64,000 nucleotides of DNA from Yuukianura sp. NJ FZ-2021. Taxonomy: Eukaryota. Position 1 is the first letter of the stretch; every line of letters begins with the position of its first letter. The position numbers and the translations under genes are program-made. The stretch is from the NCBI GenBank assembly GCA_046563655.1, contig CM102287.1, positions 2,046,001 through 2,110,000 of the forward strand, written 5' to 3'. Shown here piece by piece: positions 8,516 to 46,336 of the stretch. Under the pieces are notes generated by a model, which did no database searches, was not told where the DNA came from, and was given only the letters and a program-made list of their open reading frames with translations.

Positions 8516-8576
8516 TGCGGAATATATATTATCGTTAAAACTTTAGTAGCTGCTTTAATTTACTTATTATAATTAC

Positions 8577-10430
8577 GCGGAACACGTTATTCCTTGGCTT
8601 TTATGAATAGTAATGGCTTCAGCTGGTACAAGAGGAAACTGCTTCCGTGTGATTTTTATGCTGGCATTCTTCTGGTGAATTTCCTGCGTGAGGAGCTCCG
8701 CTGGCGTCCAAGTTAACTCAATGCCCAAATTGTCTGCAATTGATTCGTACCGACAACGTAATTGTTGACGGCTGCGTGCGTCTTCAAATTCTAGCCATAA
8801 TCGCAGTGGAATGCGGTCGTTTGGATCTTGTAAAGCGACGCCAAGGTCAATTCTTTTAAGAATGCCAGTTACACCGTTCACCAATCCCATCAGAACAGTC
8901 AACGTTTGCTGTCATCATGTATCTTGCGTTTATTTTCAATTGTAGCTCCAGTGGAAGTCCCATTGTTTTATTTAGAGGTTTCGCTTTAAATCTTTGTAGC
9001 AGACGAACTTTGGACGATCCAGGGATGTCTCCACGGACTGCGTCAGCTGCGCAGCTAATGATAAGTTCCTCTGGCATCTGTTGTAGGTACATTTCATTGA
9101 AGGCGTTAACTGCAGCGTTAGTCTGGAAAAAATGAATCGGTCTAAGCTCAGCCACTTCCGAGGGCAGAGTGTCAAAGCAACGGGTCCGCATTAACGACAT
9201 GTCTTCTTCAGTCATTATTCCCCTTGCCATGTTGTTGAGTGCCACAGCGAAGGCGACGTCTTCACTTTGACGCATGATTGTCGTTAATTCATGAACAAGA
9301 AAATGATGCCAGAGCGGACGACAGAATAATAAAGAGATCGAGTTGCTCATTGTTCCGTGAGTTAATGGGACAGCTAGAACGGGTGGTAGCTGATAAAAGT
9401 CACCAACGGCAATGAATGAGATTCCCCCGAAAGGTTCGGTTTGCTTGAACAAATCTCTCAAGCGCTTGTCCACCTGCTCCAGAAGATGCTCACCCACCAT
9501 ACTGATCTCATCGCAAATCACGATCTGAAAATGATAAAGTACAATTACTATACGTTAATAATACAAATTATATAAAACAAACCGAGACCTTTAGTTGTGA
9601 ATAAGTCGTAGCCATCGTGTTAGAAACGTCTGCAGAAAGGGATCCAGCTTCACGTTGGTTTACTGGTAACTGAAATGCAGTGTGAAGCGTGGAGCCTCCT
9701 ATGTTAAATGCAGCTTTTCCAGTTGGAGCCACCAGAAGTACGGAGATTTTGTCGGGATTACGGTTCACATCAGAGTTATAAATCCTCACCAATCCTTGAT
9801 GCAGCGTTTTGATCACATGAGACTTCCCGACACCTGCTCCTCCCTTTAAGTAGATGTGAAATGCCGAGTTTTCAATTCTCTTTACGTGATCAAACGTATG
9901 GTAAACCAAGTCTCGCTGTTCGTCGTTCAAAGAAGTTAGTAGCGACCAGTATTCATCATTGGTAGTCAACGCTGGAGTCTTGAAACTTTCTGCAAATGGC
10001 CGTCTTTCGTATGAACCGAAATCAACCGCGTTAGCTCCAGATGCATCTTCTAGTCGATACTCACGCAGCTCATCGACAGAAGGCTGGTTTTCATCCAAGT
10101 TATCCTCATTCTCTGGTGGCCTAGCGAGGACTTCCTCCATCGCAATGTCAAGAATACAATCATCAAAGAAATTAAATTCTTTTCTGTTTCTGGTGATCAA
10201 GTCAATATTTTCAGCAACTATTTTCTGACAGTCCATATCTTCCCCACACTCCTCCTCTTCGTTCCTCCATGACTTATACAGCATCAGGAGTTTTCTGAAA
10301 AAGTTATCTGGATCTTTGTCTTTGTTGTACCGCACGAACCGAATGACTTTTGCAAATTTCCTCTTGCGGACGTAACCAGAGTTATCGAGTAGCTTGTAAA
10401 TTTCATTACTAGTTTCTTCAGATAGTGGTG
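8577..10430 (-). pseudogene. Helentron PIF1-family helicase (spliced, frameshifted)
   Basis: Walker A GGAGVGKS, APTGKAAFNIGGSTLH, Walker B ICDEISMV, GDFYQLPPV and QFPLVPAEAITIHKSQG. Introns at ~9525-9587 and ~8516-8576; frameshift at ~8890. Confidence 0.92.
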
Positions 10431-10432
10431 TT

Positions 10433-11169
10433 TCATCGTCCTCGTTGTGGTTCGACTACCTGTTTTCTCATAGTTTTGGAATATTCATACCATGCAGAGA
10501 ATTGAGCAAGATTCAGTGATTCCAATGCAAGTGGTCGTTGAGCATAGTGATCAGTTGGACTAGTAAAGAAGATGTTCTGGTCATCGGGGTCCAACTGGGA
10601 TAGATCCGCCTGAGACTTCAACATTCTGGTACGATGGCTGGCAGGAGCAGTCTGAACAAAGACACACTTCTCCGAAGAGTAGCTCATTGGCATTTGTAGA
10701 ACATTGGAAGCGGCTTCTTGTGCGGATAATTCACTATTGAGGTTATGAGCTGCCCCAATCGCTTGCAGGCTGTCTTTCAGCGGTGTGTTTCCTTTCCGCA
10801 CTTCGTCCACAACATTCCTCAAGAGTTCCGAGAGACCTCGATTGCTTTTGTTTATGTAGTCAACAATATAGCTACAACAGGCGTATGGATCAAGGATGAA
10901 TTGAATATCCATGTTGGACTTTTGCAGACGCAAAATCTTCTCGTTGTAGGGGTTGATATAAACTTCGTTCGGTTTACGTCTCAAAAACACATGTGGCTTC
11001 TTCAATTTCGTCTGAATCACGTTTAAATACAATTGAAGATCGCAACCTATTGCTTCCAGAAATGCTTCGAATGACATTCCGGTGTCTAGAACTTGATTTT
11101 CCAAAAAATCTCGAATAGTTTTGTGTAATAACTTGAGATACTTGAGTTGTGCTGTGTCTTCCAGGGGTA
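10433..11169 (-). pseudogene. Helentron Rep C-terminal part
   Basis: INPYN...NMDIQFILDPYACCSYIVDYINK (YxxxY catalytic tyrosines) and ELSAQEAA. Joins in frame to the segment right of 26186 once the insertion is removed (KTRILV-PLEDTAQL). Confidence 0.9.
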
Positions 11170-11835
11170 CTGTTCAGATCAAAAAAGAAACCGCAAAAAC
11201 ACCTGCAATCTGTCATGTGCTTTTTTCCCATAAGAAAAAAGAAGCTCCTCACTTCTCCATTCCTCTCCTGCAAAAGGAGGGAAGTTCTTTTTTGACAGAT
11301 GTCTTTTCAAAAAAGAGATAGAGATTAGAGATTGCGCCGCAAGTCAATGCTCCGCCAAAAATAATTACAAAAATTATAAATACAATAAAAAATTATAAAT
11401 AAAATAAGATTAAGAATATCCTTACATTATTCAATTCGTCCACTAGGCATAACATTTTGAAACACTTCATAATATTATTTCCATAATTTTCACCATTTCC
11501 GTCTAAGCTTAGTTGCTGTAATCATAAGTCTTATATTATCACTTCCCTTTTCTTTGCAAAAAGAACATGTTTTCAAGTTTTTATCGTATTTTTTGTGCTA
11601 CGGTTAGGTTCAAAGTACATAATGTTGTTAATGACAGCATCTCTTCAACGCATGCAAAATTCCCTTCCTTTCAAATTCAAATTCTGAGAATTGATACTAA
11701 ACGAAAGACATGAACCCATATAACTCTCCACGGGGTCAGGTCAAAAGGTTAGCCTGCCTGTTTCTGGCAGGCTTTTCAGAATAAGTATTAATGATAGTTT
11801 TATAGCTTGTAATTAATATTAGCCAATATGTTTAG

Positions 11836-12457
11836 TGTTACACTGGAATTAGTGTAGTGCCGCTTCGGAAGGGCCCTCGGGGTCAGTCGATGTTCTCCCA
11901 AGGGGTCAAGGGTCTTAAGGACCTCTTCCCGGCGATGAGTTCTGTCCTTGTGTGAAATAAATATTTGAATTTGTGTGTAAGCATACCTTATTTGTGCTGA
12001 TTGCTGATTTATTTACGCTTAAGTGCTGGGGGTACTTATTCCTTAGTGACTTCTCCGACTCTTCTCTCTGACTTTCCTTTCTTACTTCTAAACCGTGACT
12101 GAATGTTATTTATACAAAGGTGCTTAATTGCTTAATTAAGGTTGCTAGGTGGTCGTTAATTGGAAATTTGAACAACAACTTTTGCTTCCCTAACCGCATT
12201 AGCGGCGCTGGCTGTGGTAGTACTAATTGGATAAATTTACAATCTTCTTCCACTTGGCCTTGTGGTCACTTGGCCTTGTGGTTTCCGCTCAGAAGGAATT
12301 AGCCTGGTGCTTGGTGTGCTTAGTGACTAAGTCTACTTGGCAACTAGATGTGCTTAGCAACTAGGTAGTGCACGTGCGACCTTGGTCCAGTGTTTTGTGG
12401 AAGTGAAAGTACAAGTGCGGGCACTGAAAGTATTGTTGTGCAAGTGCAGGTGCAACA
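11836..12457 (-). repeat. 3' LTR, family 1 (622 bp)
   Basis: Direct repeat of 25234-25857, with about 10 substitutions and one 2-nt indel counted by eye (~98% identity). Confidence 0.97.
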
Positions 12458-12515
12458 CTTTCCACTGCCTAATCTTTTTGTCGTCCCGACAAAACAAGTG
12501 GTTGAAGGTGATGAC

Positions 12516-13766
12516 TCATTCTTGGGGTGGTTGTCGTCGTTCGAGTTCCAGAAGCCTATCCTGCATATCCCGAACCTGGCGTACTAAGTCGGGGATAAGG
12601 ACATCGGGCGGTGGTAAGTCGCCAAGGGTGAGTTGTCGTTGAAGTGCAGTGGGGTATGGCGTCATTCGTCGGCTGGATGTGGGAGTGGTGGATTCTGCGG
12701 CTCGTCGGCTCGGTGAGCGTATCTCTTCCATGAATTCGGGGCCAAACCAGACAAGTAACTGTGGGATGAGTTGGGACGCTCTGGCTTCGTCCATTCCGGG
12801 TGGTTTGGGTAACGTGGTAATCCGTCGGGACAGTCCTCTGATGAACTCAAGATTGGTACCGGTCTTCCATCGCATGTAGTCGGCAACGAAAAGTTGAGTG
12901 GGAACGTCCAAGACTCGAGCGACATAAATGATGCTGGCGCGAATGCGTGTATCACGATGGTCGGTTGGTAGGGTATTTGAAAAGAAGTGAGTTAGACGAA
13001 ACGGCTCTGCGGTTTGTTCATGGGTGGTCTCGAGCATGCTTTGTAAAAGCGCTGGGATGTCAATTGATCCGATTGCGTAACCGTCCTGTAGGTACACGGT
13101 AATATCTTTCCACAGTTGAGCGATTGTCTCTGTGTGATCAACCATGCGAGGGTCGTCTTGTTGCATGCGGTGTTGGGGGAAACCTGCCGGTATGGTGACC
13201 GTAGACTGGAAGTAGCTTCTCACGGTTCGTGGCGCCGCATGGTCTGGCAAACCGTGTATGTGGCAGCGGATAGTCTCTACGTCCAAGACACTGCGCGGAA
13301 TGACTCCGAAATCTCGCTCAATCCACTGTTGTTGCTCCTTTCCGTTGTAGCAAATCTTCATTATCCGCGGTGATGCAAACAGAGTTTTTAACGGGCCGTG
13401 CGTGTCTTCATCTCTGGGGTCCATGATGAAGGTTTTGTTCTTGGACACAATGACTAGACGGCAGATCGCTCCGATGTATGAATGTGGCCATTCGAAACAG
13501 GCAAAGACAACTGGAGAGAGTTCGATTGCTTGTGAGACATGTGCCGTAACTTCTTCTTTCGTCTTCAAGACCGTGTAGTTAGATGGAGGTAGGAGCCATC
13601 CTGGCGTCCAAAGTGAATCGTGCATACGAGTTTCGTCAATGTCTAGCACTTCCATCCGGTCTGGGCGTATCATTCGTGCTCCGTCCGTGAGGTTGCGCAC
13701 TTGTGTTTGTGCGTACTTGAGTTGTGGGAGGTTCCGTGAGACTGAAGGTGCGATGTCGAATTCCAT
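12516..13766 (-). CDS. Rrp6/RNase D-like DEDDy exonuclease-fold protein, probably catalytically inactive, 416 aa
   Basis: Intact ORF between env and the 3' LTR. FACFEW..SYIGAICRLVIVSKNKTFIMDP...LKTLFASPRIMKICYN...WIERDFGV....VLDVE follows the Rrp6 pattern VDLE...CLMQIST...FIID...L...F.DP.I.KVFHG..D..WLQ.DFG....FDT, but the ExoI and ExoII Asp are replaced. HRDC-like VARVLDVP segment. Confidence 0.72.
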   Translation of the reverse strand: MEFDIAPSVSRNLPQLKYAQTQVRNLTDGARMIRPDRMEVLDIDETRMHDSLWTPGWLLPPSNYTVLKTKEEVTAHVSQAIELSPVVFACFEWPHSYIGAICRLVIVSKNKTFIMDPRDEDTHGPLKTLFASPRIMKICYNGKEQQQWIERDFGVIPRSVLDVETIRCHIHGLPDHAAPRTVRSYFQSTVTIPAGFPQHRMQQDDPRMVDHTETIAQLWKDITVYLQDGYAIGSIDIPALLQSMLETTHEQTAEPFRLTHFFSNTLPTDHRDTRIRASIIYVARVLDVPTQLFVADYMRWKTGTNLEFIRGLSRRITTLPKPPGMDEARASQLIPQLLVWFGPEFMEEIRSPSRRAAESTTPTSSRRMTPYPTALQRQLTLGDLPPPDVLIPDLVRQVRDMQDRLLELERRQPPQE

Positions 13767-13880
13767 GGCTAAGGAGTACCTGAGAAGGTGAAAATTAGAT
13801 TAGACGTACAGTGTGCATGATTTGGTGTGCATCGTCAGGATCGTCATGAGTCAATTTCTGGGTGTGGGTAGCGTTTGCGC

Positions 13881-16154
13881 TCAATAGTTATAGCCCGGTT
13901 CAGGGTTTGTGCCGTTTCCCACATTTGTTTCGGCAAATGAGACTCGTCTGGCCTCAGAAAGAGGATAGTCGTAGTAAACTTTCGGTGGAGTCTCTGGTTG
14001 TTGAGTGGCTTTATGGAGTTCGTTGATCGTCTCGTACTCCGTCTCAATCCGTTCAGCAAGGTTGGCTAGTGCACTGGTCCTAGGGAACTTCAAGTTCGTC
14101 AGTGGGTTGCGTTTCACGACAGGGCTGCTTCGCGTCAATTTGGCAGTTTGGGTTGCTGCAGCATAAGTCACCACCGGTTGTCCTTGGGTCTCAGTTTGGT
14201 TTCGTCGTCGCAGGATGCAGTACCAGTACAGGGTGAATATTATGATGATGGTCATCAGAACCAGAGCTAAGGCAAAGTTGCTGGCATGGTGGTAGTCGAC
14301 GTGGTCCGATTGTGCTGCTACTCCTCGTAGTCTGTCCAGGAACGGCAAGGCAAAGGTCAAGCCCGGGGAGGCTTGCAGTTGCTTGTAGAGTAGGAACCCT
14401 AGTCCCAAAGTGAGGCAGACATTCCAAATGATCAATGCCGTGTTAGTTGATGGCGGAATGATGTGCATCAACTTAGGCACCATCATGGTCTTGAGTTGAC
14501 TGATTTCGGTCAAATTCAGTCGGGGTGCGTCGAGGTCCCAGGATTCGTTGAAGACAGATTTCAAGTTAGGGAAGACAGTTTGGCTTCCGTAGTTCCGGTC
14601 GTGGGCTGGTTTGAGCATGATGTCGATCTTCGACATCATTGCTGGTATGACGATTGTGACTCGTGGTGCGTCCGCCATGCCCGTGGGGCATGGATACGGT
14701 GGTCGAATTGTCCGTCGTCCTGGAACTTGTAGTTCGCAGTCGCAAGAGAGTCTGACTTCAAGGCTTCCAATCTGGTCAGATGGTGGCTGCACGGGGTGAG
14801 TCCTGTTGTCCGAGATCCCGCGTTCTCCGCACTGGATCTGCATTCCTTCTGGGGCTCCGGTCAGAATGAAAGTGTGGTAGTCCAATTGAGTTACGCTGAA
14901 GTCTCCCGGTGTGTTGAGACATTCAAAGAGGCAGACTTCGTTGAGTTCTCGAACGCTGGCTCCGCGTAAGAGCCGTTGGGCGCATAAGTATCCGGTCATC
15001 GGGTCGGAGCTGAACTGTGGTACGTGGCAGAGTCCGGTTTCGGGGTGGCATTGTTGGAGTTGTGTGCCTTGGATCGTCACGAGTTCTTCTTCGTTAACGG
15101 CTAGGTATGCTGGAGCGTGTTGAACAATGCAGGTGCTGCCCTTATAACTGAACGGCACGTTTATCATTTCGTAGAGCTTCCAATTGTCTACGAGCTTCTT
15201 GATGGGTACCCGAATGCGGTACATAATCCGTCCTCCGTCGCTGAAAGCGCAGTCAGTGAGCTTCAGTTTGTAATACCGTGTGACTTCCTCGATGGGTATT
15301 ACAAGTCCGTAGCCGTCGGCTAGTAGCTTCCGGCTGGCTTTGCGGAGATCTGCTGCTAACTGGGTCGGTGGGACTGCCAAAATGGAGATGGTTTGAGCTC
15401 GGCAGTGGTCCTGGAGATCCTTGAAGCGCATCAGCTCTCCGATTTGGTTGAGGTAGTCGAACACTTGGAGAAAGGTTCGTCTAGTGGAATCTCCTTCGGC
15501 GGTAAGCAAGGTCATTGTCCTTTGCACACTTGCGTTGCTGTCCTGCATGGCGGCCTGTTGTTGGTAGAGTCGGTTGACGTGCTCGTGCGCGGTTTGGAAG
15601 AGTCGGGTGACGTTCTTCCCAAAAAGTTCCATTGAGGTTTTCAGGTTCATCACGTTCTGGTTGTTTATGACAACTGAGCCCTTAATGGCTTCCATGAACT
15701 TCTCGATGCTCTCACCGTTGACCTGGAGGTCCTGCATGTCTCTTTTGGAGACGAATCCGCAACAAAAGCTGAACATGTCGCTGACTAGGGTGAGAGGGTT
15801 GAACGATTGCCATGTGAGGTCCCGTTTCGTGCGTCTTGGGCTGGTTCCGGTCATCATCATGTCGTCCTTGATGGATGCAAACATCTTGGTGAGGTAGGTT
15901 GTGTAGGGTCGAATGTTCATTGGGAAGGTGCAGCCTTCAGTTTGAGCGTCACGGCATGTTCCTTCCATGACATTTCCAATCGGGTTGGTAAAGTTGACTT
16001 GAATGTCATAGACCAGGGGAATTGTAGCGGTGTACAATTCCGTTCCTTTGACCTCCCGAACGAGAGATCCTGTAGTGACTCTGACTTCGGTGGGCTGAAT
16101 TGAGAACGCATTGGTTCCTCCCATGATGGTTGTCAGTATAACCAGCCACTCCAT
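13881..16154 (-). CDS. env: Envelope glycoprotein, class I fusion (baculovirus F/errantivirus-like), ~757 aa from ATG 16154
   Basis: Signal peptide MEWLVILTTIMGGTNA, furin site RRTKR (~15822-15836) followed by a hydrophobic fusion-peptide-like stretch, heptad region, Cys-rich ectodomain with N-glycosylation sequons, and C-terminal TM helices. Lies directly after pol. Confidence 0.88.
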   Translation of the reverse strand: MEWLVILTTIMGGTNAFSIQPTEVRVTTGSLVREVKGTELYTATIPLVYDIQVNFTNPIGNVMEGTCRDAQTEGCTFPMNIRPYTTYLTKMFASIKDDMMMTGTSPRRTKRDLTWQSFNPLTLVSDMFSFCCGFVSKRDMQDLQVNGESIEKFMEAIKGSVVINNQNVMNLKTSMELFGKNVTRLFQTAHEHVNRLYQQQAAMQDSNASVQRTMTLLTAEGDSTRRTFLQVFDYLNQIGELMRFKDLQDHCRAQTISILAVPPTQLAADLRKASRKLLADGYGLVIPIEEVTRYYKLKLTDCAFSDGGRIMYRIRVPIKKLVDNWKLYEMINVPFSYKGSTCIVQHAPAYLAVNEEELVTIQGTQLQQCHPETGLCHVPQFSSDPMTGYLCAQRLLRGASVRELNEVCLFECLNTPGDFSVTQLDYHTFILTGAPEGMQIQCGERGISDNRTHPVQPPSDQIGSLEVRLSCDCELQVPGRRTIRPPYPCPTGMADAPRVTIVIPAMMSKIDIMLKPAHDRNYGSQTVFPNLKSVFNESWDLDAPRLNLTEISQLKTMMVPKLMHIIPPSTNTALIIWNVCLTLGLGFLLYKQLQASPGLTFALPFLDRLRGVAAQSDHVDYHHASNFALALVLMTIIIIFTLYWYCILRRRNQTETQGQPVVTYAAATQTAKLTRSSPVVKRNPLTNLKFPRTSALANLAERIETEYETINELHKATQQPETPPKVYYDYPLSEARRVSFAETNVGNGTNPEPGYNY

Positions 16155-16188
16155 TCTGAATATAGAAGATTTAGGGTTAGAACTTACG

Positions 16189-19100
16189 CTAGGTAAACCG
16201 TGCAGGTTTACGGATCTGTCGCCCTGCGCGTGTGACATAGGGCGTTTGTGACCTTTTGGTTTCATCTATGTCGGCCTTGTCGACCTTTGTGTCGACCTTC
16301 TCCTCTTCCGAGGACTCACTACTACTCTCGCAACTGTCCTCGCTAGTCGAGGTTGCAGTAGAGCTACTGTCATTCTTTTCGTCGTCAGAAGTCAGAGGCG
16401 ACGATGACGTAGGTATTGTAAAGTTTTGAAGCACTGGAGGCGGAGCATTGCCTTCCCCAACTTGATTTGCTGCTACTCCCGGAGCAGCTTCAGTGGTCGC
16501 AAATTCGAGTAGTGACTCGGAGTACGGTTTAAGATGATCGATGTGGGCCCGAACATGAGGCGCGTCGGGATCGGCGCGTGGCACGCACCAGTACGAGAGT
16601 GGGGAGTGTTTCTTGGTGATGACGTAAGGTCCACGGTATCGCATCGCAAGTTTGCGAGAAGTACCGGGTGCTGGTTTGTGAACCTTGATGAGGACAAGGT
16701 CCCCTTCATTGTATTCGAAATCCAGTCGGCCGACGTTAAAGAGTTTGCATTGGCGTTGTTGGCTCTGTTGGAGACCTTTGCGTGCCGCGTCTCGTGCTTC
16801 CTGCATTCGCCGAATGCGCGTCGGAATGTCGGTGGATAGTCGGACCGTCGTACACGATGTCAAGAGGGTGATAGGGATGACGACCGTAAAGGATATAATA
16901 GCTGCTATATCCAGTAGAGTCCTTGTGCACTGCAGTGTTGAGTGCAAAAACGGCGGATCCAAGATATTTGTCCCAGTTGCGCTGGTTCGACGAAACGTAG
17001 TTGGTGAGGATTTCTTCAATGCTACGGTTGTTCCGTTCCACCAGCCCATTAGTCCTGCTGTGGTATGGCGATGAATAGACGTTGGTCGCCCCGATCAGGG
17101 AGTTGAATTGCTTGAAGAACGAAGCGGTGAAGGTAGAGGCGTTATCCGTAAGGATCGTTTTGAAGACGCCGTGAATTTTGGATGATTTCCATAAGGAAAT
17201 CTAGCATCGCTTTCGTAGTATTGTGGCGTATGGCCTTCGCGTAGACGTATCGTGAGAGGAACTCGACTAGGACGACAATGTACTTATTTCTCGACTTTGT
17301 AGAGGGCAGGGGCCCGATGACATCTACGCTGACTCGGTCGAAGAGGTCACCTACTGGGATGGGTGACAACAGTCCGGCGGGGTGTGTGTTCCGGACTCGG
17401 CGCTTCTGACAGCTGGCACAGTTCCGTACGTACTCGGTTATAAGCGCGTCGAGCCTGAACGCGAATATGCTGTTCCGAGCCCTGGCAAGGGTTCGGGCGA
17501 CGCCTAGATGACCCATGAGTACGTCGTCGTGAAAACGAGGTAGAATGGAGTGCACCATGTGCGTCGGGATTACTGGAAGGTTAGCCTTCGTTTGTTTGCA
17601 CTTGTATTGTAGGAGACCGTCGTCTACAGTGAAGCGTTTGTGGAGCTTGCTCCTAGCGTTTGTAGTGAGAGTAGCTAAAATTTTCTGAAGCTTCTCATCG
17701 TCTTGTTGTTGGCGTAAGAGCTCGGTACGCGACTCCATCGGGGTAACAAATTGCATTGCGTACCAGTGTACTGGGAACTCATCAGTAAATGTCGCAGCGT
17801 GATCCTCCACAGGGAAACGTGAGAGGCAGTCTGCTTGAACGTGGCTTTTCCCATTGACGTGCTTTATGGTGTAGTCCACGTCCTGGAGTCGTAATGCCCA
17901 ACGTGCCAGGCGCGAGTTGCGCAAATTCCTGCACGTTTTGAGGTAGCAGAGGGCGTGATGATCGACCACAATCGTAAAGGCTTTGAAGCCAATATACTCT
18001 CGAAATTTTTCAATTCCCCACAGGACTGCTAGGCATTCTTGTTCACTGGTGTTGTAGCGCTCCTCAGCGCCACGGTAGGTGCGGCTGGCGTAAGCCACCA
18101 CGCGTAAAGTGTCTCCCTCTCGTTGTTGGAGTATGGCGGCAATGCCCTTGTTTGACGCGTCTGTGTGTAACTCGAGTTCTGCATTCTCATTAAAGAATGC
18201 GAGGATGGGTGCGGAAACCAAACATTGGCGAAGAGAATCGAAGGCTCCCTGTTCTTGGTCGCCCCACTGAAAAGCTACGGTACTTTTCGTGAGCTCAGTC
18301 AGTGGTTTCGCAATTTGGCTGTAGTTCTTGATGAAGCGACGGTAATATCCAGTACAGCCAAGGAACGTCCGTACTTCGTGAACGTTGGTGGGAGGTCGCA
18401 TCTCCGTGATGGCCTTAACTTTGTCAGGGTTGACGGCAACTCCATCCCCTGTGATGATGTGACCAAGGAGTGCTAATTTCGTTTGTCCGAAGTAACATTT
18501 CGGTGGTTGAAGGGTAAGATTGTAAGCACGAAACTGTCGGAAGACATTTTCCAAGTTGGCCAAATGTGACTGAAAATCTTTGGCGAAGACGCATACGTCG
18601 TCAAGGTATGCGGTGCAAATGGAGTGGATCCTCGTCCCAAGAACTGTCTTCATGAATGCACTAAAGGCGGCTGGTGCGCAGGTTAGGCCAAACCCCATGT
18701 AGAGGTGTTCGTAGGCGCCGGCATGAGTTACGAAGCTTGTCTTCTCGACGTCGTCCGGATGAATCGGGATTTGGAAGTAGCCGGACATCAGATCCAGGCA
18801 AGAGAAGTACTTGGCGCCATTCAAAGAAGCCAATAGTTCAGAAATTACTGGCATAGGCCAGTTGATGGTTTTGGTGACGAAGTTGAGTTTCCTCCAGTCG
18901 ATGACCATCCGGTATTTGTCACTGTTCGGTTTCTTAACTAAAGAAACTCCAGCGGCCCAAGGGGAGCGGCTTTCTCGAATAATTCCTGCTTGTAGAAGTT
19001 TGTCGACTTCTTCTTCAATGATTTTCTTCTCCGCCGGGCTCTTCTTGTAAGGTGGGCAGCTTACTGGTAGTGCGTCGCCAGTGTCGATACGGAAAGTTAC

Positions 19101-20153
19101 ATCCTTTGCTTTGCCCAACTGATCCAAATTCCAAGCGAAGATGTCGCCATATTCTAAAATGAGAGCGCGGAGTTGCGCTTGTTCGTCGGGGCTTAAGTCT
19201 GGATTTATTTGAAGTTGGTCAATATTTTCCCGGGTGGATTCCTGCCGTTGCCGGCGGATTTCCTCTTCTGGTTCCGTTTCTCGAACCAAAACACGGTAGA
19301 TATTCCCGACGTTGACTCCGCGGTACAACTTGACAGCGACTGGACGCGGGTTATCAATGGGGATCTCGAAGTCTCCTTCTGCGACATGAGCGAGTCCTGG
19401 GGCACATAGGCCTAACTTGTCGAGGGCTTGGCTATTCGGTTCGAAAGCAAGGATTCCTCGGAGCTGGTCAACTGGAAAGACCTTGATGAGCGTGGTTGAG
19501 AATGGTGGCAACATTGTTTCCTCAACTGTAAGAACTTTTGGCATCGAGGGACCATGAACCTGGGTAGCGTGAACTTGTTCGCGTTGCATGGTGTTTAGAC
19601 TCAGTCCAAGGGCGGCTGGGGTACGTAGGTTGAATCCTCGCGGTACCTTCATACCTAGGAACTGGAAAGTTCCATGTTCCAGCGACTTCGAATACTTCAA
19701 TTGCAGTTCATGTTCCAATGTAAAGTCATTCCCGAGGATTACATCGTAGGATATGTCCGCCAGGACATAAAACTTATGCGTTAGCAGAGTGGTTGACTTG
19801 CGGGAAAATGTGACTTGCCGATAGACGTAACCGAGTACCGTGACCTTCGACCCGTTTGGAAGGTCGAGAGCTGATGAAGAGTCTATGGGCCTGATTTCGT
19901 CCGAAGTGACATTGTTGAGCCGAATTATGCTGACTGGGCATCCCGTGTCAAGGAGACACGAGCATCGCTTGAGTTTTGAGTTTTGTGACAAAAATATGCT
20001 AATTATGAGGTTGCCGACTGGATCCGTACTACTAGGGTCTCCTGGAAAAGCTGTGTTGCGGGTCATCATAGCTAGAATTGGTCGTGTTGGATTAGAGGGT
20101 TTAGCGTTTGAGTGGGCTTCAGACCTCTCTACTGTCGCCGCGCTGCGTTTCCC
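16189..20153 (-). pseudogene. pol: Gypsy pol (PR-RT-RNase H-IN), integrase frameshifted
   Basis: LLDTGC protease, YLDD RT, LHTDAS RNase H, HxxxxxGH...CASC and VSVDVIGP integrase, and a GPY motif. The integrase is spread over several frames, with shifts at ~17160, ~17045 and ~16830. Confidence 0.95.
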
Positions 20154-21598
20154 TGAGCCGATACAGTTCGTCCTGCCGTCGGAGCTGAAGCTACAGCTTC
20201 GGAAGAGTTGCCTCTGTGTTCCGGTTGTCGCCGGGGGCAATCGAACGTAAGGTGTTCTCCGTCACACTGAGCGCAGCGGGGGTCCCGAATAGTGTTCCGC
20301 AAATATGATTGGTAGCGAGAGCACTCCGCTCGACGGTGTTGCGGTGATCCGCACTCGAAGCATCCACGGAACGTAGGTCGGTCTTGCCATGGTCGCCATG
20401 GGCGACCGTTGCTGCGCTGTCCAGAGCTGTATGGATTGGTTCCCGGAGATTGACGTGGTTGATCGCGATTGTACCCGTGGCCTGCTTTGCCCCATGCTGG
20501 GCGTCGTTTCACCGTGCGTCGCTCCACAGCTTGTGGTTCCGCTGGTGCTTCCAAGTTCATGTTGTTGAAGCGTGCAGTCAATCGGGGTAGATCGGTGCCT
20601 GCCCGTTTCCGCTTCATCATGAAGTCGTAGTTCTCCTTTTCTATAAGAAACTGCGTCACATCTTGCGGCGTCTTCGGTTGACGTAGGAATATCTCGTGAC
20701 TGACATCTGCTGGCAACCCCTTGAGCAGGAAGTTGACCCGCTTTTCGTCCTTCATGGTGGTCCCTTGGCTTTTGTCCAACTGGTCACATAGTCGCAGCAC
20801 CTTGCCGCAGTAGTCTTCCACGCTCTCTTTTGGATTTCTCTTCCGTTGAGCCAAGCGGTATTCCAATTCTTCTTCAGTCAGCCGTGACTTGAAGCTAGTG
20901 TGGAATCCCTCCTTTAGGGTCTTCCATGGAAGAGCGACAACGTCGCCGTTGGCGTCTCGATTGGCTGGGTCACGCTCCCAGTCGGTGCGAAAGTTCAAGA
21001 ACCAGGTTTTCGCATAGCCCTTGAGGTAAAGCGGCAGATGGCGCACTTTCGCAGCCTCGTCCCAACGTTGATTAACAGCTATTGCCTTGAATGTCTCCTA
21101 GAAATTCCTGGCTGGGTAACCTCGCTTCCCCTCGAATGTTGAATCGCCCGGTGGTGTCCAAACGGATACCACAACACTCGGTGCGGGAGTCGTCAGCACA
21201 ACAGGTTGCTGAGGTCCCGGAGTAGGTGGCGTGCCTGTGCCTCCTGGCATTCCAGATGCTGGTGGCTGTCCGCCACCGGTTAGGTTCACAACTGGGACTG
21301 TTGAGCTTGGCCCACCAGCTCCTGCTGGCGGCGTCGGTGGGGTAGTCGTTGCGGGCACCGGAAGAGTGAACGCGCTCCCGGTCCCTCCGGCGGGTCCGAA
21401 TGTCCCGCCCGTTTGGCCCGTTGTTGGGCTTACAACAAGGTCGCTAGTTCTTGTCGTCGCACCGGCTCATGCCGTGGGCGTCTTCGGCCGTTGCCGATCC
21501 CGTTCCTTTGCCTCCTTCAGTACTGCGGAGAGGTCCGCAAGTCCGTACGTTGGTGGAGTCCCGTCCTGTCGGGTGTGTCGATGAGCTGGATCCGACAT
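20129..21598 (-). pseudogene. gag: gag with two in-frame stops
   Basis: ATG 21598, ORF 21098-21358 and ORF 20129-21046 share one frame, broken by TGA 21467-21469 and TAG 21098-21100. Capsid-like LYLKGYAKTWF and ESVEDY; knuckles CFECGSPQHRRAEC and CAQCDGEHLTFDC. A -1 slippery heptamer GGGAAAC at 20153-20147 leads into the pol frame. Confidence 0.9.
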
Positions 21599-22669
21599 GA
21601 CTTACTTCGTCTTCTTCTTCTTCTGAAAGGATCAGATGATTAGTTGTATTTGGTCCCCTAGGGCGTGGGATGATGTAGGGTCGAGGGTTGGATAACTTCC
21701 TCCCTCGGCATTTGCAGAAAAATGAAATAGCTATTGCCCCCATGCCGGCTAGTAACCCTACTATGAAACCGCGCATGAAGGTGTCGGGGTTGAATATATC
21801 GGACATAAGGTGGGCAGTTTGACAGTCTACCCCCAGTTGAAGATATGCGTATAGGGACTTGTCCATGAGTAGCTTGTTTTCCCGGGTTATCAGCTGGACC
21901 CGGCCTTTCTCGTAAGTGTAAACGCCTCGTTCCGTGTCCCGAATACCGACAAGGCGTAGATCTCGTAGGTGAGGGTAGGGCATGTAGATGTCGGGCTCGT
22001 CCCATAAGGTTTGAATCATGCCCTTCTCTAGGTATAGCGGCCTCCATCCAGTAGCCAGCATGATCCAAAGGGTGTGTTCTGATGGGAAGTACCCCAAAAC
22101 TGGGTATGTAATGCCAAAGAAACTTCGGTGCTTGAGTCCTGGTGTAATTAGGTGGCCGTCTGATAAATATACTCCGATTTGGTCGTCAACCATAACATAG
22201 AGGTAACTCGCGACGCCGACTGTGAAGTTGATTCGGCCGTCCGGCGGGAAGTCCTCGAAGAAATCGGCATTCTGCACTGGAGTAGGAAGTAGTGTCCCAG
22301 CTCCTGTAACTCTAACGTGACTTTTCCCGTGGAACAAGAGGTGGTCCCCATTGAGGTATCCAACATGATCGTACCACAGGGTACTCAGGCCTCGGATGTT
22401 TTCTCCATCCGGCCCTTCGTCGAAGAATCCTGGTGGGTACAGGACTTTCAGTGCTTCTTCGTCGGGAACTCCTATTTCCGTAACGTGCGGCCAGAACTGG
22501 TACCATGCTGTCATCACAGATCCTATGGCACGAGTGTGTGGCAAGGCCAAGGCGTGGCCTATTTCGTGTAGGAGTACCGAAAATAGATTGACGTGTTCGT
22601 CGTCTTCTCCGAGAGACCAAGTCTCGTTTGCGTCTAGGTGGATTTGTCCGCCCATAACTGATCCTGGAT

Positions 22670-24181
22670 CAGAGGTGGTAGCCTGCAACTATTTTCCCCA
22701 ACCTGCCCCGCCTGCACTGCAGGAATTTTTAGCCTGCACGCCTGCAGCCTGCAAAATTGTCGAAAATCGGCAGCCTGCACGCCTGCACCCGCAAGGCTCT
22801 TTGGCAGGCCAGCCTGCAGCCTGCGCAGGCTGCCTGCAGTTAGCCTGCAATTTTTTTATACGAACTGTAATCTGAAAAAATTTTAATATACACTTACAAC
22901 TACTGCGTAGATTCGTTTGCGTATAATGGCAATTACTCAATCACCCTCGATTATCTGTCGGTTGTCCTTTCCAAACACGTAGCGAGAAAAATTCCTTGTA
23001 ATAAATTGTTCTACGACACTTCTACCTTACTTTTGGTTAGACTTTCACGGCTCCGGCTCTTTGGCAAAGAGTCGAGTCGGAGTCGGAGCCGGAACCGACT
23101 CTCGACTCCCATATTTTCAAGGAGTCGGAGTCGGAGTCGAATAGCCGACTCGGCTCTTTACTCAAGAGCCGAGTCGGAGCCGGAGTCGAGCCGGGAGCCG
23201 TGGCGCCCGGAGCCGGGTATTTTTATCATGAAAAAATCAGAAAAATTTGCTACGCTGTACATTTCCAAGCCATTCGTACACAGACTTGTGGCGATTAACT
23301 AACGGATTAATGCAGTCATCAATGACGTTCAAAAAAGGTTACTGCTACTGTGCCTTAAATCAACAAAAATACATTTTATCTACTGTGAGAGAAATTAGGG
23401 AGACAAGAAACGACTCTTGCATAGTAGCGAGCAACGATTTTGAGCAAGAAACAACAATTATTTTCGTAAAATTCGCTGAAAAGTCACGTTTTCGACTCCC
23501 GGCTCTTGGCCTAACAAGGAGCCGGAGTTGGAGTCGGAGTCGGTACCGACTCCCGACTCCCATATTTTTCAAGAGTCGGAGCCGGAGCCGAAGGTCCGAC
23601 TCGGCTCTTTAAGGAAGAGTCGAGTCGGAGCCGAGCCGGGAGCCGCGGCTCCGGAGCCGTTGGAGAGCCGAGAGCCGTGAAAGTCTACTTTTGGTTTGTT
23701 TAACTTTTAAAAATTCTTGATCCTTGCACATAAAAAAATCCGCAAAAGTTATACTGTCAAATCTTGCGTTGTCTACACGTGCAAGTGTAACGCCAACTTT
23801 ACTTTTTAACCATATTTCTTCTTTCTCCGGATTCATTATTTATTGTTTAAAAGCCCTATAGTGCAACTAATGTGCAGCAAAAAGTTTGCATAGTTCCATT
23901 GACTTTAATTCTTCAACATTCCAAAGTAATTTTTCTATTCGTTTCTATCTTTTCTTGAAGTTTCTGAGAATAAAACGCTCAAAAAATCACAACCCGCAGC
24001 CTGCAGGCCAAATGCAGGCGCCTGCAGAGCATTGAAGACTGAACCCGCCCGCCTGCAACATTTCCAAATAAAAACCTGCACGCCTGCAGCCTGCAAAAAT
24101 CCACCGCAGGTTGAGCCCGCCTGCACGGGCTGCAGGTTGGCCTGCAACCTGCGCAGGTTTACCTGCAGGCTACCACCTCTG
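22670..24181. mobile_element. hAT-type MITE inserted in the MMP gene
   Basis: 18-bp TIR CAGAGGTGGTAGCCTGCA, 8-bp TSD TCCTGGAT (22662-22669 and 24182-24189), GCCTGCA subterminal repeats. Confidence 0.95.
23038..23687. mobile_element. Second hAT-type MITE nested in the first
   Basis: TIR TAGACTTTCACGGCTC, 8-bp TSD CTTTTGGT (23030-23037 and 23688-23695), GAGCCG/GAGTCG subterminal repeats. Confidence 0.95.
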
Positions 24182-25215
24182 TCCTGGATAGTGGGCGTGG
24201 GCTAGTGTGCCTCCACGTCCGTCACTGGCGTCATCATGAATTTCGTGTTCGAAAGTGATGGGGATGTCAGCACTCCCTTCTACGTAAGTAAAGGTGAAGT
24301 TGGAATAGCGTTGCCACTTCACAAACGCCAGACTGGCGTCAGCCAGTGCTTCTTCTCGGTCCATATCATATGGAGTAGGTCCAAGGGTCCAGGTAAGGTC
24401 CCTCTTGGTCCACCGGTGAGGGTTCACCGGACTTCGTCGAGTTCGTGTCGCCGGTGCCCACGGGCACATCATCGTTCCGGCGACCTCTGCAACGAGCGTC
24501 GTCCCGACGCAAAGTACAAGGAGCATCCGTAGAGTCATACCGTCCAGGTATCCTGTAACAGGGTTGAACCGCCAAGGTTCGGTAATTTGTTTCATTGCTT
24601 CGTTTGTAGCCTCGTTGTGTTTCGCTCCTCGGGGTATGCGACAGGTGTCGAAGAAAAACCTCTGTCCTACGTCATCGCCTCTCTCGAGTGGTCGCGACTC
24701 CACCCTCAAAGCGACTTCGATTACTTGCGCTAAATGGGCAGCTGTAGGGTCTGGGACCTCAATGTTCTACAGCCCGGTCAAGATTTACACCGTTGCCGAG
24801 GTGACGGCCCACCGTCCCTCAACCCGTTCCTTCACGGAATATTTCTAGACGTTCGGTTTCATCTACGCCAAGCGCGGAGAGCAGTGAATCTTCTATACAA
24901 GTCGTTAATACGCCAGCCAGCTACCCAACTGGCTGGGGAAGAAAGTAGCGTCGAAAAAGAAATGACAGTAGGAGTTTCCTCCCCCTCTCTCAATTGTGAG
25001 AACAATAAGTTAGTAAGTTACGTTATTGTCTTACGTTACTGACTACGTTATAGTTTCGCGCACACATTCATTCAATACGTTAAGTTACGTTAACAGCTGC
25101 ATTAAAGACTGCGGTATTGTAGTAACAATAGTCTCATTTGAATAAACAGCGCAAGAAAGAAAAGCAAACAGCCGCAGAGGCGGGAACCTCTTATTGTTTT
25201 AAAATAAATTGCCAT

Positions 25216-25231
25216 CTCGGCAAATGCACCA
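25216..25231 (-). promoter_or_regulatory. Primer-binding site, family 1 (tRNA-Gly-like)
   Basis: TGGTGCATTTGCCGAG lies 2 nt inside the 5' LTR and resembles the complement of the tRNA-Gly(GCC) 3' end, TGGTGCATTGGCCGGG (recalled, not searched). Confidence 0.7.
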
Positions 25232-25233
25232 TT

Positions 25234-25857
25234 TGTTACACTGGAATTAGTGTAGTGCCGCTTCGGAAGGGCCCTCGGGGTCAGTCGATATTCTCCCAAG
25301 GGGTCAAGGGTCTTAAGGACCTCTTCCCGGCGATGAGTTCTGTCCTTGTGTGAAATAAATATTTGAATTTGTGTGTAAGCATACCTTATTTGTGCTGATT
25401 GCTGATTTATTTACGCTTAAGTGCTGGGGGTACTTATTCCTTGGTGACTTCTCCGACTCTTCTCTCTGACTTTCCTTTCTTACTTCTAAACCGTGACTGA
25501 ATGTTATTTATACAAAGGTGCTTAATTGCTTAATTAAGGTTGCTAGGTGGTCGTTAATTGGAAATTTGAACAACAACTTTTGCTTCCCTAACCGCATTAG
25601 CGGCGCTGGCTGTAGTTGTTCTAATTGGATAAATTTACAATTTTCTTCCACTTGGCCTTGTGGTCACTTGGCCTTGTGGTTTTTCCGCTCAGAAGGAATT
25701 AGCCTGGTGCTTGGTGTGCTTAGTGACTAAGTCTACTTGGCAACTAGATGTGCTTAGCAACTAGGTAGTGCACGTGCGACCTTGGTCCAGTGTTTTGTGG
25801 AAGTGAAAGTACAAGTGCAGGTAGTGAAAGTATTGTTGTGCAAGTGCAGGTGCAACA
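25234..25857 (-). repeat. 5' LTR, family 1 (624 bp)
   Basis: Direct repeat of 11836-12457 and adjacent to the PBS. Minus-strand TATAAATA at ~25505-25512 and AATAAA at ~25406-25411. Confidence 0.97.
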
Positions 25858-26186
25858 TTAGCGTAAATGTATCAGTTGTATTTTAAGGAAAGGTGCGTAT
25901 ATTAATAGTTTACTAGGATTATTGTTTTTCAACTTTTAAATTATATAGTCTTACTCTTATTTTATTTATAATTTTTGTAATTATTTTTGGGCGGAGCATT
26001 GACTTGCGGCGCAATCTCTAATCTTCGTCTCTTTTTGGAAAAAACACCTGTCACAAAAGAACTTCCCTCCTTTAGCAGGAAAGGAATGGAGAAATGAGTA
26101 GCTTTTTTTGTCTCTTTGTTCCTTATGGGAAAAAAGCACATGACAGATTGCAGGTGTTTTTGCGGTTTCTTTTTTGATCTGAACAG

Positions 26187-28247
26187 TACAAGGATCCGAG
26201 TTTTATCCATTGGAAAGAAAGGAATTCCAAAACGACATTTCACTCCTTTGTGCGTTCTTTTGTAGCAAGTATGAGTATGGCGATGCGTTTGGAGCGACAG
26301 TAGACCATTAATGGGATCCTCAGGAGTGTAGTTTGTACTGCATGTAATCATGCTGTCAATAAAATTCGTCACGTCATCGTGATAAGCCTTCTCCGAGTTG
26401 AAGGTTGGTGCGTCGGAGAGCCAGAACATGGCATGGACATGAGGACTTCCCCGGTGCTGGAACTCTACTCTCTCATAAAAGTGGCGAATTTCGTGACAAC
26501 CAAAAGGACCATTTCGGGAGCGGTAAGTTGCCTTCCGCGCGGAGTAACGGTTGTCAAAATAACGTGCACAAGTGATCGGGTCGCGTTGAATGAGAAGCGC
26601 CTTTTCAGAATGCGGTAACTGCTCGGCTTCCTCTTCAGAGGTTTCAACGCCATCCAGAATTTTCTTCAGTAAAACAAGTAACTCGTTCCACTTCATCTCT
26701 GCCGCGCTGATTGTTACAAACAAAGTAGCGATCCCAAAGGTACGAATCATTGCCCGAACTTTGTTACCCTCGTTCTTCCAGTGTATTCCTGCGTTTCTAA
26801 TTCCCGCTAGAACTCTATAAGCGTTATCGTCCCGGATGAGGCCATCGACGTAAGTCTGGTGCAAGACTTGGCCTGCTGTGGGAACAATGAGCTCTCCGTT
26901 AAGTCTTCGCTTCCTAAGGTGTATGTTTCTGTTGCTTGCTATTCGCGAGATTTCCAGGGTCTTCGCCATGAACAAAAGAAAATCCACGGATTCAGCCACA
27001 CGCCGGTCCTTATTCCTAGCAAATGACTTGAACATATCGGCTCTTGAGATTTTCTTCCCAGCAAAAATGGGGTTCATCTTGTGTCCGGCGAACAACTGAG
27101 GAAAAGCGAGAAATACAGAGTCTTCGTCCAGAAGAACAGAAACAGGGCGATTTCCCTCCGCGAGGGGCATCCGAAGCCCGGCGCTATCGGTCAGCAGGGT
27201 TTCATTTGCGGTGGATTCTTCAAATTCTCCACCCGACTGTACTTCGCTCGAGATACTCAGAGGGTTTTCGAGCAAATTCTCCAGGCTAGAGTCCATTGAA
27301 GTCAATTCTCGATGAGAATCCACCAGCCAAGAATGGGAGACATTCACACCATGTTGAGAGTACAATGGAGATTTGCACAGAACTTCAGCAGCTAGAAAAA
27401 CTTTTTCTGGACGGATGTTTCCAGAAGTATAATTCTTCTCAACATGCATCTGACGGGCTAGCCGAAGATGCAGCACCGAATCGTCTGAAGGAAGACGTGG
27501 CAGGGATTGGACGATGTTGGTAACAGATACAGGCACGTTGATAATACGACCTTTGGTCTTGAGCTGACCTAAAGTTAAGAAATATTTGAATTACCTTTCT
27601 TGAAACTGATTCAATTAAAAACTAAATCCTTGAGGTCCTTGGACTGCCCATATCGCTTGAAAAACATGGTAAGGCGACACTAATCTGGCCTCCAACCGTG
27701 TCAAAGACGCGACTTCAGATGGTACGGCCGGAAACTGGAGTCCATTGGTTAAGCACAGTCGAGAGCTACGACCAGATTTCACAGCAGCGTGGCAAGTAAT
27801 GCAAAATTGTCCTACAAGTTGATTTGACGTGAAAATTGTGTTGAGAAAGTTGTCGTCAGATTTAGTACAGTCGGATCGCCGCAGCTGCTTGATAGATTTT
27901 TTAAACCAAAGTCCACCACAGGAGATGCATTCGTGTGATGGACCTTCTCTGCATTTTTCTTCGAAGACCTCGACGACACAATCCCAGGACTCATCATGAA
28001 TTTGACGCAGTTGACGATGAGCTGCAGTATCTCGTTCTCGTTCCAGTTGTCTGTAGTCGTCATTTTCACGTAGTTGACGATGAGCTGCAGAATCCCGTAC
28101 TTGCTCTCCACGGCGGATCCCTTCATCTAGCCGGGCAACTCCGTGAGAAATGATGTTTCTGCTTTGTTCTTCTTGTCTGCTAGATTCGACTGCCCTTACG
28201 AACTGCATTCGTCGTCTCGCTCTGGCTCGTCGGTGCGGATTTGACAT
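26187..28247 (-). pseudogene. Helentron Rep N-terminal part (zinc finger plus HUH Rep), two exons
   Basis: RDxAAHRQLR repeats, CISC...CITC zinc finger, intron at ~27570-27625, LFVTISAAE motif I and VEFQHRGSPHVHAMFW HUH motif. Confidence 0.93.
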
Positions 28248-29069
28248 AATTCTATCTGAAATAAAGAAATATCACGTAATTGGGTATTCCTTGATAGTGA
28301 CAAATAAAATTAGAAACCACATTCTTACCCGACGGAAATGTATAAATTTGAATCTAAGATTGAGGTTACGTACTACTTAAATTATAACTGAGAATTGTGA
28401 ATTAAACTGTAAACTAGACACTTGAATGATACAGGCAAAGAACTAATGTCAGTTGATCTTAATTGTGTAAAGTTTATAAGTTTAAGATGAGACCGTATTG
28501 GAACAAAATTCAAAAAAACTCGTTTTGCCAATTACACTTTGTAGCCAAAAATGTTTCAATACAATCCACAACTATTAAACAACCCCCACATAATGTATTG
28601 TCAAAGTTGCCATGGCAATATACTATTATCACTTCTGCACTAAATTGATGTTGTTAATTTGTTGTGCACCAAATGCACAAAATTGAACGCTGAGGCAGCC
28701 GCATATTTTGACGTTGTTAATGTAAGACTTTGAGTGCAATGTAGACCTACTAAAAACACTTGAGCCAAACATAACCCCCAGACTGCGATGGGGCTTATGT
28801 TTCAGTGGAAAGGGTCCTAAAAAAGGTGACAGACAGACGGACGGACGGACAAAGTCGTATCAATAGTCTTCTTCAGCATGTCGTAGACATGCGTCTCCAG
28901 AAGACTAAAATTGAATTCATGCAAGATTAAATGCACAAAATTGAACCCTGAGGAGAATGGGTGGAATACTCCTTCTTTCAAATCCAAATCGGTTCATGAA
29001 AATGCACAGTGTTTTACATTTAGTGCATAACTTATTGAGTCGAAAATCGCTTGTTTACAATCAAATATA

Positions 29070-37136: not shown

Positions 37137-37186
<50 letters not shown>

Positions 37187-46305: not shown

Positions 46306-46336
<31 letters not shown>

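Follow-up and report, generated by a model that had tools for sequence, protein, structure and literature searches.

Probable five-gene ancestry of a defective env-bearing Gypsy element that carries a matrixin-like gene and a diverged exonuclease-like gene in Yuukianura sp.

Results

Element boundaries and integration site

The 64,000-nt stretch analysed here (the window; contig CM102287.1 of assembly GCA_046563655.1 from Yuukianura sp. NJ FZ-2021, positions 2,046,001 to 2,110,000 of the forward strand) contains a long terminal repeat (LTR) element, assigned to the Ty3/Gypsy type by the sequence of its pol gene, which we call element A. All coordinates are positions in the window, and the genes and signals of element A lie on its minus strand. 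Stop-to-stop frames combined with Pfam matches place five genes inside the LTR pair, in the order matrix metalloproteinase (MMP), gag, pol, env and an exonuclease-like open reading frame (ORF), ORF5. The LTRs, at 25234-25857 (5′ LTR, 624 bp) and 11836-12457 (3′ LTR, 622 bp), are 98.2% identical over 624 columns according to a repeat search and BLASTN. On the element strand both start with TGTTG and finish with AACA (TG..CA ends), and each contains TATAAA followed about 100 nt on by AATAAA (at 25512 and 25411, respectively, in the 5′ LTR). Flank alignment identified a 4-bp target-site duplication (TSD), TTAG on the plus strand and CTAA on the element strand, at 25858-25861 on the 5′ side and at 11832-11835 on the 3′ side. 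Between the LTRs, a primer-binding site (PBS)-like stretch beginning with TGG (25216-25231) starts 2 nt past the 5′ LTR, a leader of 620 nt (24596-25215) precedes the MMP gene, and a purine-rich tract resembling a polypurine tract (PPT; 12458-12480) adjoins the 3′ LTR; the PBS-like stretch and the PPT-like tract were read from the sequence, and the 64-kb window contains no tRNA gene against which the former could be matched.

Contigs from runs X1-X3, which derive from one sample, were aligned to the element region; the contig figures given throughout are examples among the matches listed and not copy counts. Contigs joining 11831 to 25858, with 14026 bases skipped and four letters shared at the joint, were found in every run (at least two each in X1, X2 and X3). 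A single Helitron, oriented on the same strand, makes up both flanks of element A, with a Helitron_like_N ORF upstream (25962-27590) and PIF1 helicase ORFs downstream (8856-10455), and because other copies of this Helitron show a precise empty site, the whole block must have entered as one integration event. The host Helitron (7671-11835 and 25858-28271, minus strand) contains Rep (Helitron_like_N), DUF6570 and PIF1 helicase ORFs, the helicase being spread over several frames, and is a multi-copy element, given that many contigs join across the insertion site.

An earlier note on this DNA had described an LTR pair of about 98% identity with a TTAG TSD, enclosing five same-strand genes of a retrovirus-like Gypsy element. 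This description is borne out by the LTR identity, by TTAG at both ends as the single TSD pair, by the empty site, by the location of all five genes on the minus strand between the LTRs and by the Ty3-like pol. The further description of the genes as intronless and tightly packed applies to the ancestor only, because the present copy is defective and its MMP gene is split by a 1512-bp insertion. The GC content of all five genes is 0.51-0.57 compared with 0.444 for the window. When nine pieces of element A were scanned against Pfam, two of them, the N-terminal extension of gag and the integrase-core piece, had no match.

gag and pol of the Ty3 type

The gag gene (20129-21466) encodes a Pro/Thr/Gly-rich N-terminus, a capsid domain (Pfam Retrotrans_gag, E = 3.9e-9) and a CCHC knuckle. 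In its zero frame, 18 nt ahead of the gag stop, stands the heptamer G_GGA_AAC (20147-20153), which is used by retroviruses and presumably acts as the slippery site here; the pol frame is -1 relative to gag. The pol gene (16189-20261) has the domain order protease, reverse transcriptase (RT), RNase H and integrase, with a protease DTG motif read in the sequence and Pfam matches to RVT_1 (2.2e-24), RT_RNaseH (3.2e-31) and Integrase_H2C2 (3.1e-13), while SH3_Tf2-1 fell below the cutoff. Its integrase part is distributed over three frames (20261-17142, 17200-16736 and 17094-16189). The best PDB match of pol is Ty3 Gag-Pol (7q5b, E = 9.9e-85), followed by Ty3 RT (3.3e-70), with the enzymes of caulimoviruses, foamy viruses and gammaretroviruses far below, and these similarities identify pol as Ty3/Gypsy type at the sequence level. 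Pol of element A is 31-34% identical to that of three further Gypsy elements in the window (B, C and D, see below) and 64% identical to that of a metagenomic locus, L001.

A matrixin gene ahead of gag

The first gene is read in two parts. Its N-terminal part (24182-24595, within the stop-to-stop frame 24766-24170) comprises a signal peptide, one cysteine, a furin site (RTRR) and the first half of a matrixin catalytic domain (Pfam Peptidase_M10, E = 8.9e-14, profile positions 1-82 of 159). The C-terminal part (21444-22661, frame 22688-21444) continues with the zinc motif, the Met-turn, about 200 amino acids that are possibly hemopexin-like, a transmembrane (TM) anchor, a tail and the stop codon (Peptidase_M10, E = 4.3e-17, profile positions 75-158 of 159). 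Both matches exceed the Pfam cutoff, and once 1520 nt, corresponding to an inserted miniature inverted-repeat transposable element (MITE) and one copy of its TSD, are removed, the frame is continuous over 543 codons from an ATG at 24595. The signal peptide and RTRR are separated by about 12 residues that include the single cysteine, and RTRR directly precedes the catalytic domain. The zinc motif, HEIGHALALPH, retains HExxHxxxxxH, the methionine of the Met-turn is present, and the TM anchor (amino acids 307-325 of the C-terminal part) is followed by a cytoplasmic tail of 85 residues. Judged by these motifs, the first gene is predicted to encode a membrane-anchored matrixin whose zinc site is intact.

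The best relatives with solved structures in a PDB search are MMP-1, MMP-16 and MMP-14 (E = 1.5e-9 to 7.7e-9). The alignment to MMP-1 extends into hemopexin blade 1, and the Atlas neighbours are clusters of matrixin plus hemopexin proteins (0.85, taken as a lead only). Word-index protein searches returned a single match for residues 1-300 among 1901 candidates, a beetle “interstitial collagenase-like” protein with 39% identity over 26% of the query, and none for the whole C-terminal part among 8000 candidates. The GC content of the gene (0.52-0.55) and its GC content at third codon positions fit the other genes of the element, unlike the window (GC 0.444). Within the 64-kb window there is no second copy of the MMP gene, env or ORF5.

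An F-type env

The env gene (13881-16265) encodes 794 amino acids with the features of an F-type class I fusion glycoprotein, namely a furin site (RTKR, amino acids 145-148) followed by a hydrophobic stretch, a TM segment (amino acids 666-684) and 18 cysteines, 11 of which are invariant in the env alignment. Among 1.84 billion representatives scanned in full with HMMER, 547 are related to env at E<=1e-3 and 101 of these at E<=1e-30, the best being 47% identical; named sources among the matches listed are a firefly and a springtail. The alignment consists of 55 members, the query and 54 sequences chosen from the best 150 of the 547 relatives. Although the env query alone matched Pfam Baculo_F below the cutoff (E = 2e-4), 11 of the 55 aligned members matched this family, the best at 2.2e-15. 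An AlphaFold2 model built with the same alignment reached a mean predicted local distance difference test (pLDDT) score of 73.6, and its top Foldseek matches in the PDB are the F proteins of respiratory syncytial virus, human parainfluenza virus 3, henipavirus and metapneumovirus (E = 1.4e-9, probability 1.0). By sequence, env had no PDB match at E<=10, so that the fold search alone succeeded. The model thus predicts the class I fusogen fold of paramyxovirus F and baculovirus F proteins, and the fusogen proposed in the earlier note is backed by this match.

A diverged exonuclease-like gene behind env

ORF5 (12516-13766, within the stop-to-stop frame 13799-12516) encodes 416 amino acids resembling proteins of the Rrp6/RNase D (DEDD-fold) type, with catalytic residues that are not conserved. 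Its matches are weak in each of three libraries: Pfam DNA_pol_A_exo1 (E = 1.1e-4), PDB, where Trypanosoma brucei RRP6 is best (E = 5.3e-5) and all 14 matches at E<=1 are Rrp6, EXOSC10 or RNase D, and NCBIfam RNase D (1.1e-3). All three place amino acids ~103-192 in the same register on the ExoI-ExoII region of Rrp6/RNase D, with the WIERDFG of ORF5 aligned to WLQKDFG of Rrp6. In the Rrp6 alignment the ExoI aspartate is replaced by Ala/Cys and the ExoII aspartate by Gln, and the ExoIII tyrosine also appears to be lost when the sequence is read by eye. An HRDC-like stretch seen by eye in ORF5 gave a BLAST segment with E = 6.4 and no Pfam match, and is not claimed.

From these alignments, ORF5 is probably homologous to DEDD-fold proteins and is unlikely to have nuclease activity. 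The earlier note had suggested an RNA-surveillance-related gene; the relationship to Rrp6/RNase D survives as a weak match below the Pfam cutoff, whereas an active RNA-surveillance enzyme is unlikely because the ExoI and ExoII aspartates are missing.

Two further Gypsy elements in the window have, directly after pol, an ORF that strongly resembles Rrp6 and includes an HRDC region. Element B (37421-45504, plus strand) is complete, with LTRs at 37421-37808 and 45111-45504 that are 92.8% identical and have TG..CA ends, a PBS (TGGCGACCG), gag (37995-39581), pol (39560-43021) and an exonuclease ORF (43022-45100). The latter encodes 692 amino acids of Rrp6/EXOSC10-like sequence plus HRDC (PDB Rrp6, E = 2e-27) and shares the frame of pol, from which one stop codon separates it. 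Element C (57697-64000, minus strand), another copy of the family to which element B belongs, is truncated at the end of the window and has its exonuclease ORF at 57697-59676. Both exonuclease ORFs keep the D-x-E, D and Y-x3-D (DEDD-Y) residues; they are 86% identical at the protein level, and their ratio of non-synonymous to synonymous substitution rates (dN/dS) of 0.20 over 659 codons indicates purifying selection. Since the pols of elements A and B are only 31% identical, exonuclease-type ORFs recur in distinct Gypsy lineages of this genome.

Damage in this copy and sequences of other copies

The insertion in the MMP gene is a hAT-like MITE of 1512 bp (22670-24181) with perfect 18-bp terminal inverted repeats (TIRs), an internal duplicated block of 150 bp and an 8-bp TSD (22662-22669 and 24182-24189), so that 1520 nt (22662-24181) break the MMP frame. 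TSDs of 8 bp are a hallmark of hAT-type elements, and as there is no transposase ORF the insertion is classified as a MITE. Its summed contig depth exceeds 10000 in X1 compared with a few hundred on element A, and the MITE is therefore a very abundant repeat in the genome. Apart from this insertion, the capsid domain of gag is interrupted by one in-frame stop codon (21098-21100), and the integrase frame breaks near 17.18 kb and 16.85 kb.

Contigs of other copies differ in length at both integrase break sites and lack the MITE, so the defects occur in this copy alone or in just a few. At least three contigs carry an MMP gene free of the MITE, two in X1 (joint 22661 to 24182, eight letters shared) and one in X2. 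Contig 20 of X3 (20934-22663; 82 differences, 11 gaps) bridges the start of gag and the end of the MMP gene, contig 22 of X3 (24444-24713 and 25014-25239) ties the 5′ end of the MMP gene to the leader and the LTR edge, and contig 3 of X1 (13345-14043; seven differences) bridges env and ORF5. These diverged contigs with MMP-gag, leader-MMP and env-ORF5 junctions show that the layout is not a one-off. Contig 17 of X3 (14022-18647; 298 differences) spans env and pol. Contig depth is roughly even over the MMP gene, pol and env; being a summed depth, it was not used to rank genes or count copies. Contigs of X1 and X3 that join 14068 to 24375, with 28 other letters between, represent an internally deleted derivative, which keeps the start of the MMP gene, the tail of env, and ORF5.

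A metagenome scan with env recovered four loci. None of the four extends upstream of RT, and only L001 (5.7 kb) continues for more than 300 nt past env; its RT-to-integrase frame is uninterrupted, and its env is 45% identical to that of element A. IMG/VR scans with env, ORF5 and pol found no relatives.

Other elements in the window

Element D (47277-53502, minus strand) is likewise of the Gypsy type but compact; its LTRs of 550 bp (47277-47826 and 52953-53502) are 99.6% identical, and it probably inserted very recently. Its pol occupies 48220-50790, ORFs upstream of pol reach to 52588, and it has neither an env nor an exonuclease ORF. A frame of 376 amino acids (51458-52588, minus strand) without Pfam match is probably its gag, and a second long frame without Pfam match (456 amino acids) occupies 55314-56684 on the plus strand. 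A BEL/Pao fragment (30834-33536, minus strand) contains Peptidase_A17 (E = 2e-49), an integrase zinc domain and DUF5641. Element B is set in a region of repeats with a period of about 1 kb (35774-37400 and 45500-46340), in which G/C-rich tandem units of 21/28 nt occur at 36524-36743; the same unit is found on both sides of the element with 96% identity.

Discussion

Weighing the explanations

Taken together, element A is probably one defective representative of an env-bearing Ty3/Gypsy endogenous retrovirus that is present in multiple copies and descends from a five-gene ancestor, a judgement that refers to structure and not to functions. The ancestral genome would have measured about 12.5 kb and consisted of LTR, PBS, leader, MMP, gag, pol, env, ORF5, PPT and LTR.

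Several observations weigh against this reading or against the roles that might be attached to it. By its sequence, the copy at hand is predicted to be unable to make MMP, Gag or integrase, and runs X1-X3, being one sample, are probably the source of the assembly itself. The leader contains seven upstream ATGs. The zinc motif of the MMP has an alanine where matrixins usually have glycine; inspection of the sequence revealed neither a propeptide domain nor the canonical PRCGxPD cysteine switch, and Pfam detected no hemopexin repeat in the gene even at E<=10. The remaining points of this kind concern ORF5 and form much of the case for two of the alternatives.

The strongest alternative holds that the MMP gene and ORF5 are passengers, host-derived sequences transduced into one subfamily and without a role in replication, as retroviruses can carry captured cellular genes. 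In the 750 nt that follow env in L001, the nearest relative among the four metagenomic loci, nothing resembles ORF5, and at least three X1 contigs diverge at 12494, 37 nt inside the boundary of the 3′ LTR, so that some LTR-sharing copies carry other sequence where ORF5 ends. The lost catalytic residues of ORF5 point in the same direction. Against this explanation, the MMP gene is far from any cellular MMP recovered (the one match among 1901 candidates, 39% over 26%, and none among 8000), intronless, streamlined to the point of having no propeptide domain, and similar in composition to the other element genes. Apart from the MITE its frame is open over 543 codons with the zinc site kept, and it is found in copies that differ by about 5%. 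In addition, the purifying selection on the exonuclease ORFs of elements B and C (dN/dS 0.20, 659 codons) shows that such ORFs can be functional cargo. We therefore consider the passenger explanation unlikely. The possibility of a one-off capture or misassembly, raised in the earlier note, is countered by other copies that share the MMP-gag, leader-MMP and env-ORF5 junctions, although some contigs diverge at the end of ORF5.

A second and still less probable alternative is that ORF5 is unrelated to exonucleases, a fast-evolving accessory ORF with weak matches arising by chance. The Pfam score of 22.5 bits does lie under the gathering cutoff of 23.6, a comparison of ORF5 with the exonuclease ORFs of elements B and C by hhalign gave E = 0.022 at a probability of 2%, and none of 3421 candidates matched in the word-index search. 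The Atlas score (0.87) counts as no more than a lead, and the AlphaFold2 model, computed from the single sequence, failed (pLDDT 37) and was discarded. Chance matches would nevertheless have had to select the same family in the same register in Pfam (1.1e-4), PDB (5.3e-5) and NCBIfam (1.1e-3), to draw 14 of 14 PDB matches from one family and to align WIERDFG with the WLQKDFG of Rrp6, and bona fide Rrp6-like ORFs hold the last-ORF position in two Gypsy elements only 12-45 kb away.

That the five-gene block is an artefact, either a misassembly or a product of elements nested or recombined between unrelated LTRs, is highly improbable: despite the dense transposon patchwork of the region and the probable identity of run data and assembly data, the LTRs are a matched pair with identical 4-bp TSDs, the empty site is precise, three gene junctions are spanned by independent contigs of diverged sequence, the genes share one strand and a uniform composition, and the sole nested insertion is a MITE with its own TIRs and 8-bp TSD.

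Proposed mechanism

For the five-gene ancestor, we propose that the LTR, with its TATA box and a poly-A signal about 100 nt later, would drive one primary transcript; between the 5′ LTR and pol there is no AATAAA except one inside the MITE. Gag-Pol would arise by a -1 frameshift at G_GGA_AAC, and translation of gag behind the 543-codon MMP ORF and the seven-ATG leader would need splicing or internal initiation. Env, cleaved by furin at RTKR and anchored in the membrane, would mediate entry from cell to cell. The MMP, which has a signal peptide, one cysteine and a furin site and no real propeptide, would be displayed on the membrane of the producer cell or of the particle. Once activated by furin it might, as a tentative suggestion, cut the extracellular matrix or basement membrane between producer and target cells; that it instead sheds or processes surface proteins seems distinctly unlikely. 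Of the matrix-degrading accessory gene named in the earlier note, the matrixin with its intact zinc motif is accordingly what can be read from the DNA, whereas the cutting of matrix is only inferred. For ORF5, it is conceivable and somewhat doubtful that the product, rather than being a nuclease, binds RNA or a cofactor without catalysis and shields the RNA of the element or routes it.

Joined into one scenario, which we regard as rather unlikely as a whole, these steps would describe a recently infectious lineage that became “complex” by the capture of enzymes: a constitutively activatable membrane MMP encoded ahead of gag would open the matrix towards new cells, for example of the germline, and a dead Rrp6-like protein would guard the RNA of the element from the nuclear exosome or small-RNA surveillance. 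If true, this would be, as far as the literature was searched, the first reverse-transcribing element reported with its own matrix-degrading protease. In invertebrates, the counterpart of retroviruses is the env-bearing Gypsy element, whose route across tissue barriers to the germline is an open question. A membrane-bound MMP in such a retroelement would point to a barrier-breaching strategy, which to our knowledge is so far known only from DNA viruses of large size. The finding would further mean that complex genomes, with accessory enzymes placed ahead of gag, can evolve in env-bearing Gypsy elements. Independently of this scenario, exonuclease ORFs of the Rrp6-like kind are not peculiar to rotifers, as they are intact and under purifying selection in elements B and C, and the role of RNA 3′-end enzymes in retroelement biology thereby becomes testable in a second host.

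Comparison with known systems

The backbone of element A and the presence of an exonuclease ORF in an LTR element are already known. What appears to be new, provisionally and as far as could be searched, is that an MMP gene precedes gag and that env and a degenerate exonuclease occur together. No report of an MMP-bearing retroelement was found in the literature, a result that is provisional since subscription journals, Repbase, Dfam and GyDB lay outside the search. Gypsy elements whose env is of the F or gB type have been found across Metazoa, many of them with an F-type env (eLife 2026, PMC13524379), and because these are catalogued only part of the layout is new. With these elements (“errantiviruses” in the wide sense), element A shares the LTR-gag-pol-env backbone, a Ty3-like pol, the presence of multiple copies per genome, and an env that follows pol and has the paramyxovirus-F/baculovirus-F fold, a furin site and a TM anchor (PMC13524379). 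It differs from the three-ORF gag-pol-env arrangement by the MMP gene before gag and ORF5 after env; the available text and supplementary files of that study mention no exonuclease or metalloprotease genes. A precedent for an ORF ahead of gag is the ENV-GAG-POL arrangement of oribatid mites, in which a membrane-protein gene likewise precedes gag; other ORF arrangements were not searched by the authors (PMC13524379). In the mites, however, the upstream gene is the fusogen, whereas in element A it is a protease and the fusogen stands in its usual place.

The exonuclease-like gene has a possible counterpart in bdelloid rotifers, where a DEDDy exonuclease is encoded by ORF3 of the Juno and Vesta LTR elements and is also found in Athena elements (Rodriguez, Kenefick & Arkhipova, 2017, PMC5408684). 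Roles in RNA 3′-end processing have been suggested for this ORF3, and inactive derivatives of DEDD proteins, EXD1 and Maelstrom, function in the pathway of PIWI-interacting RNAs (piRNAs; PMC5408684). Beyond the rotifer work and a review, no DEDDy-bearing LTR elements were found among the literature matches listed. As in Juno and Vesta, the last ORF before the 3′ LTR of a Gypsy-type element is one of RNase D/Rrp6-like sequence, which for ORF5 of element A is a weak match, and elements B and C, with their gag-pol-exo order, closely fit the Juno/Vesta type (PMC5408684). The rotifer exonuclease, by contrast, replaces env and keeps the catalytic DEED, and the rotifer elements have no MMP (PMC5408684), while ORF5 of element A follows a real env and has lost the ExoI and ExoII aspartates. 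The remark of the earlier note that it knew of no described LTR family with this layout stands provisionally with regard to the MMP, for which the literature searched offered no LTR element, and needs qualification for its other parts, DEDDy ORFs (PMC5408684) and env-bearing Gypsy elements (PMC13524379) having both been described.

The MMP of element A resembles the membrane-type MMP-14 and MMP-16 and the collagenase MMP-1 in its matrixin domain with zinc motif and Met-turn, the furin site before the catalytic domain and the C-terminal TM anchor. It differs from cellular MMPs in lacking a propeptide domain, a canonical cysteine switch and any hemopexin repeats recognised by Pfam, and in being intronless, encoded by a retroelement and only remotely similar in sequence. 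Baculoviruses (granuloviruses) encode an MMP and enhancin, metalloproteases that are thought to breach extracellular barriers of the host. These are the nearest functional analogy for an MMP borne by a virus; the granulovirus proteins belong to DNA viruses, whereas the MMP of element A sits in a retroelement.

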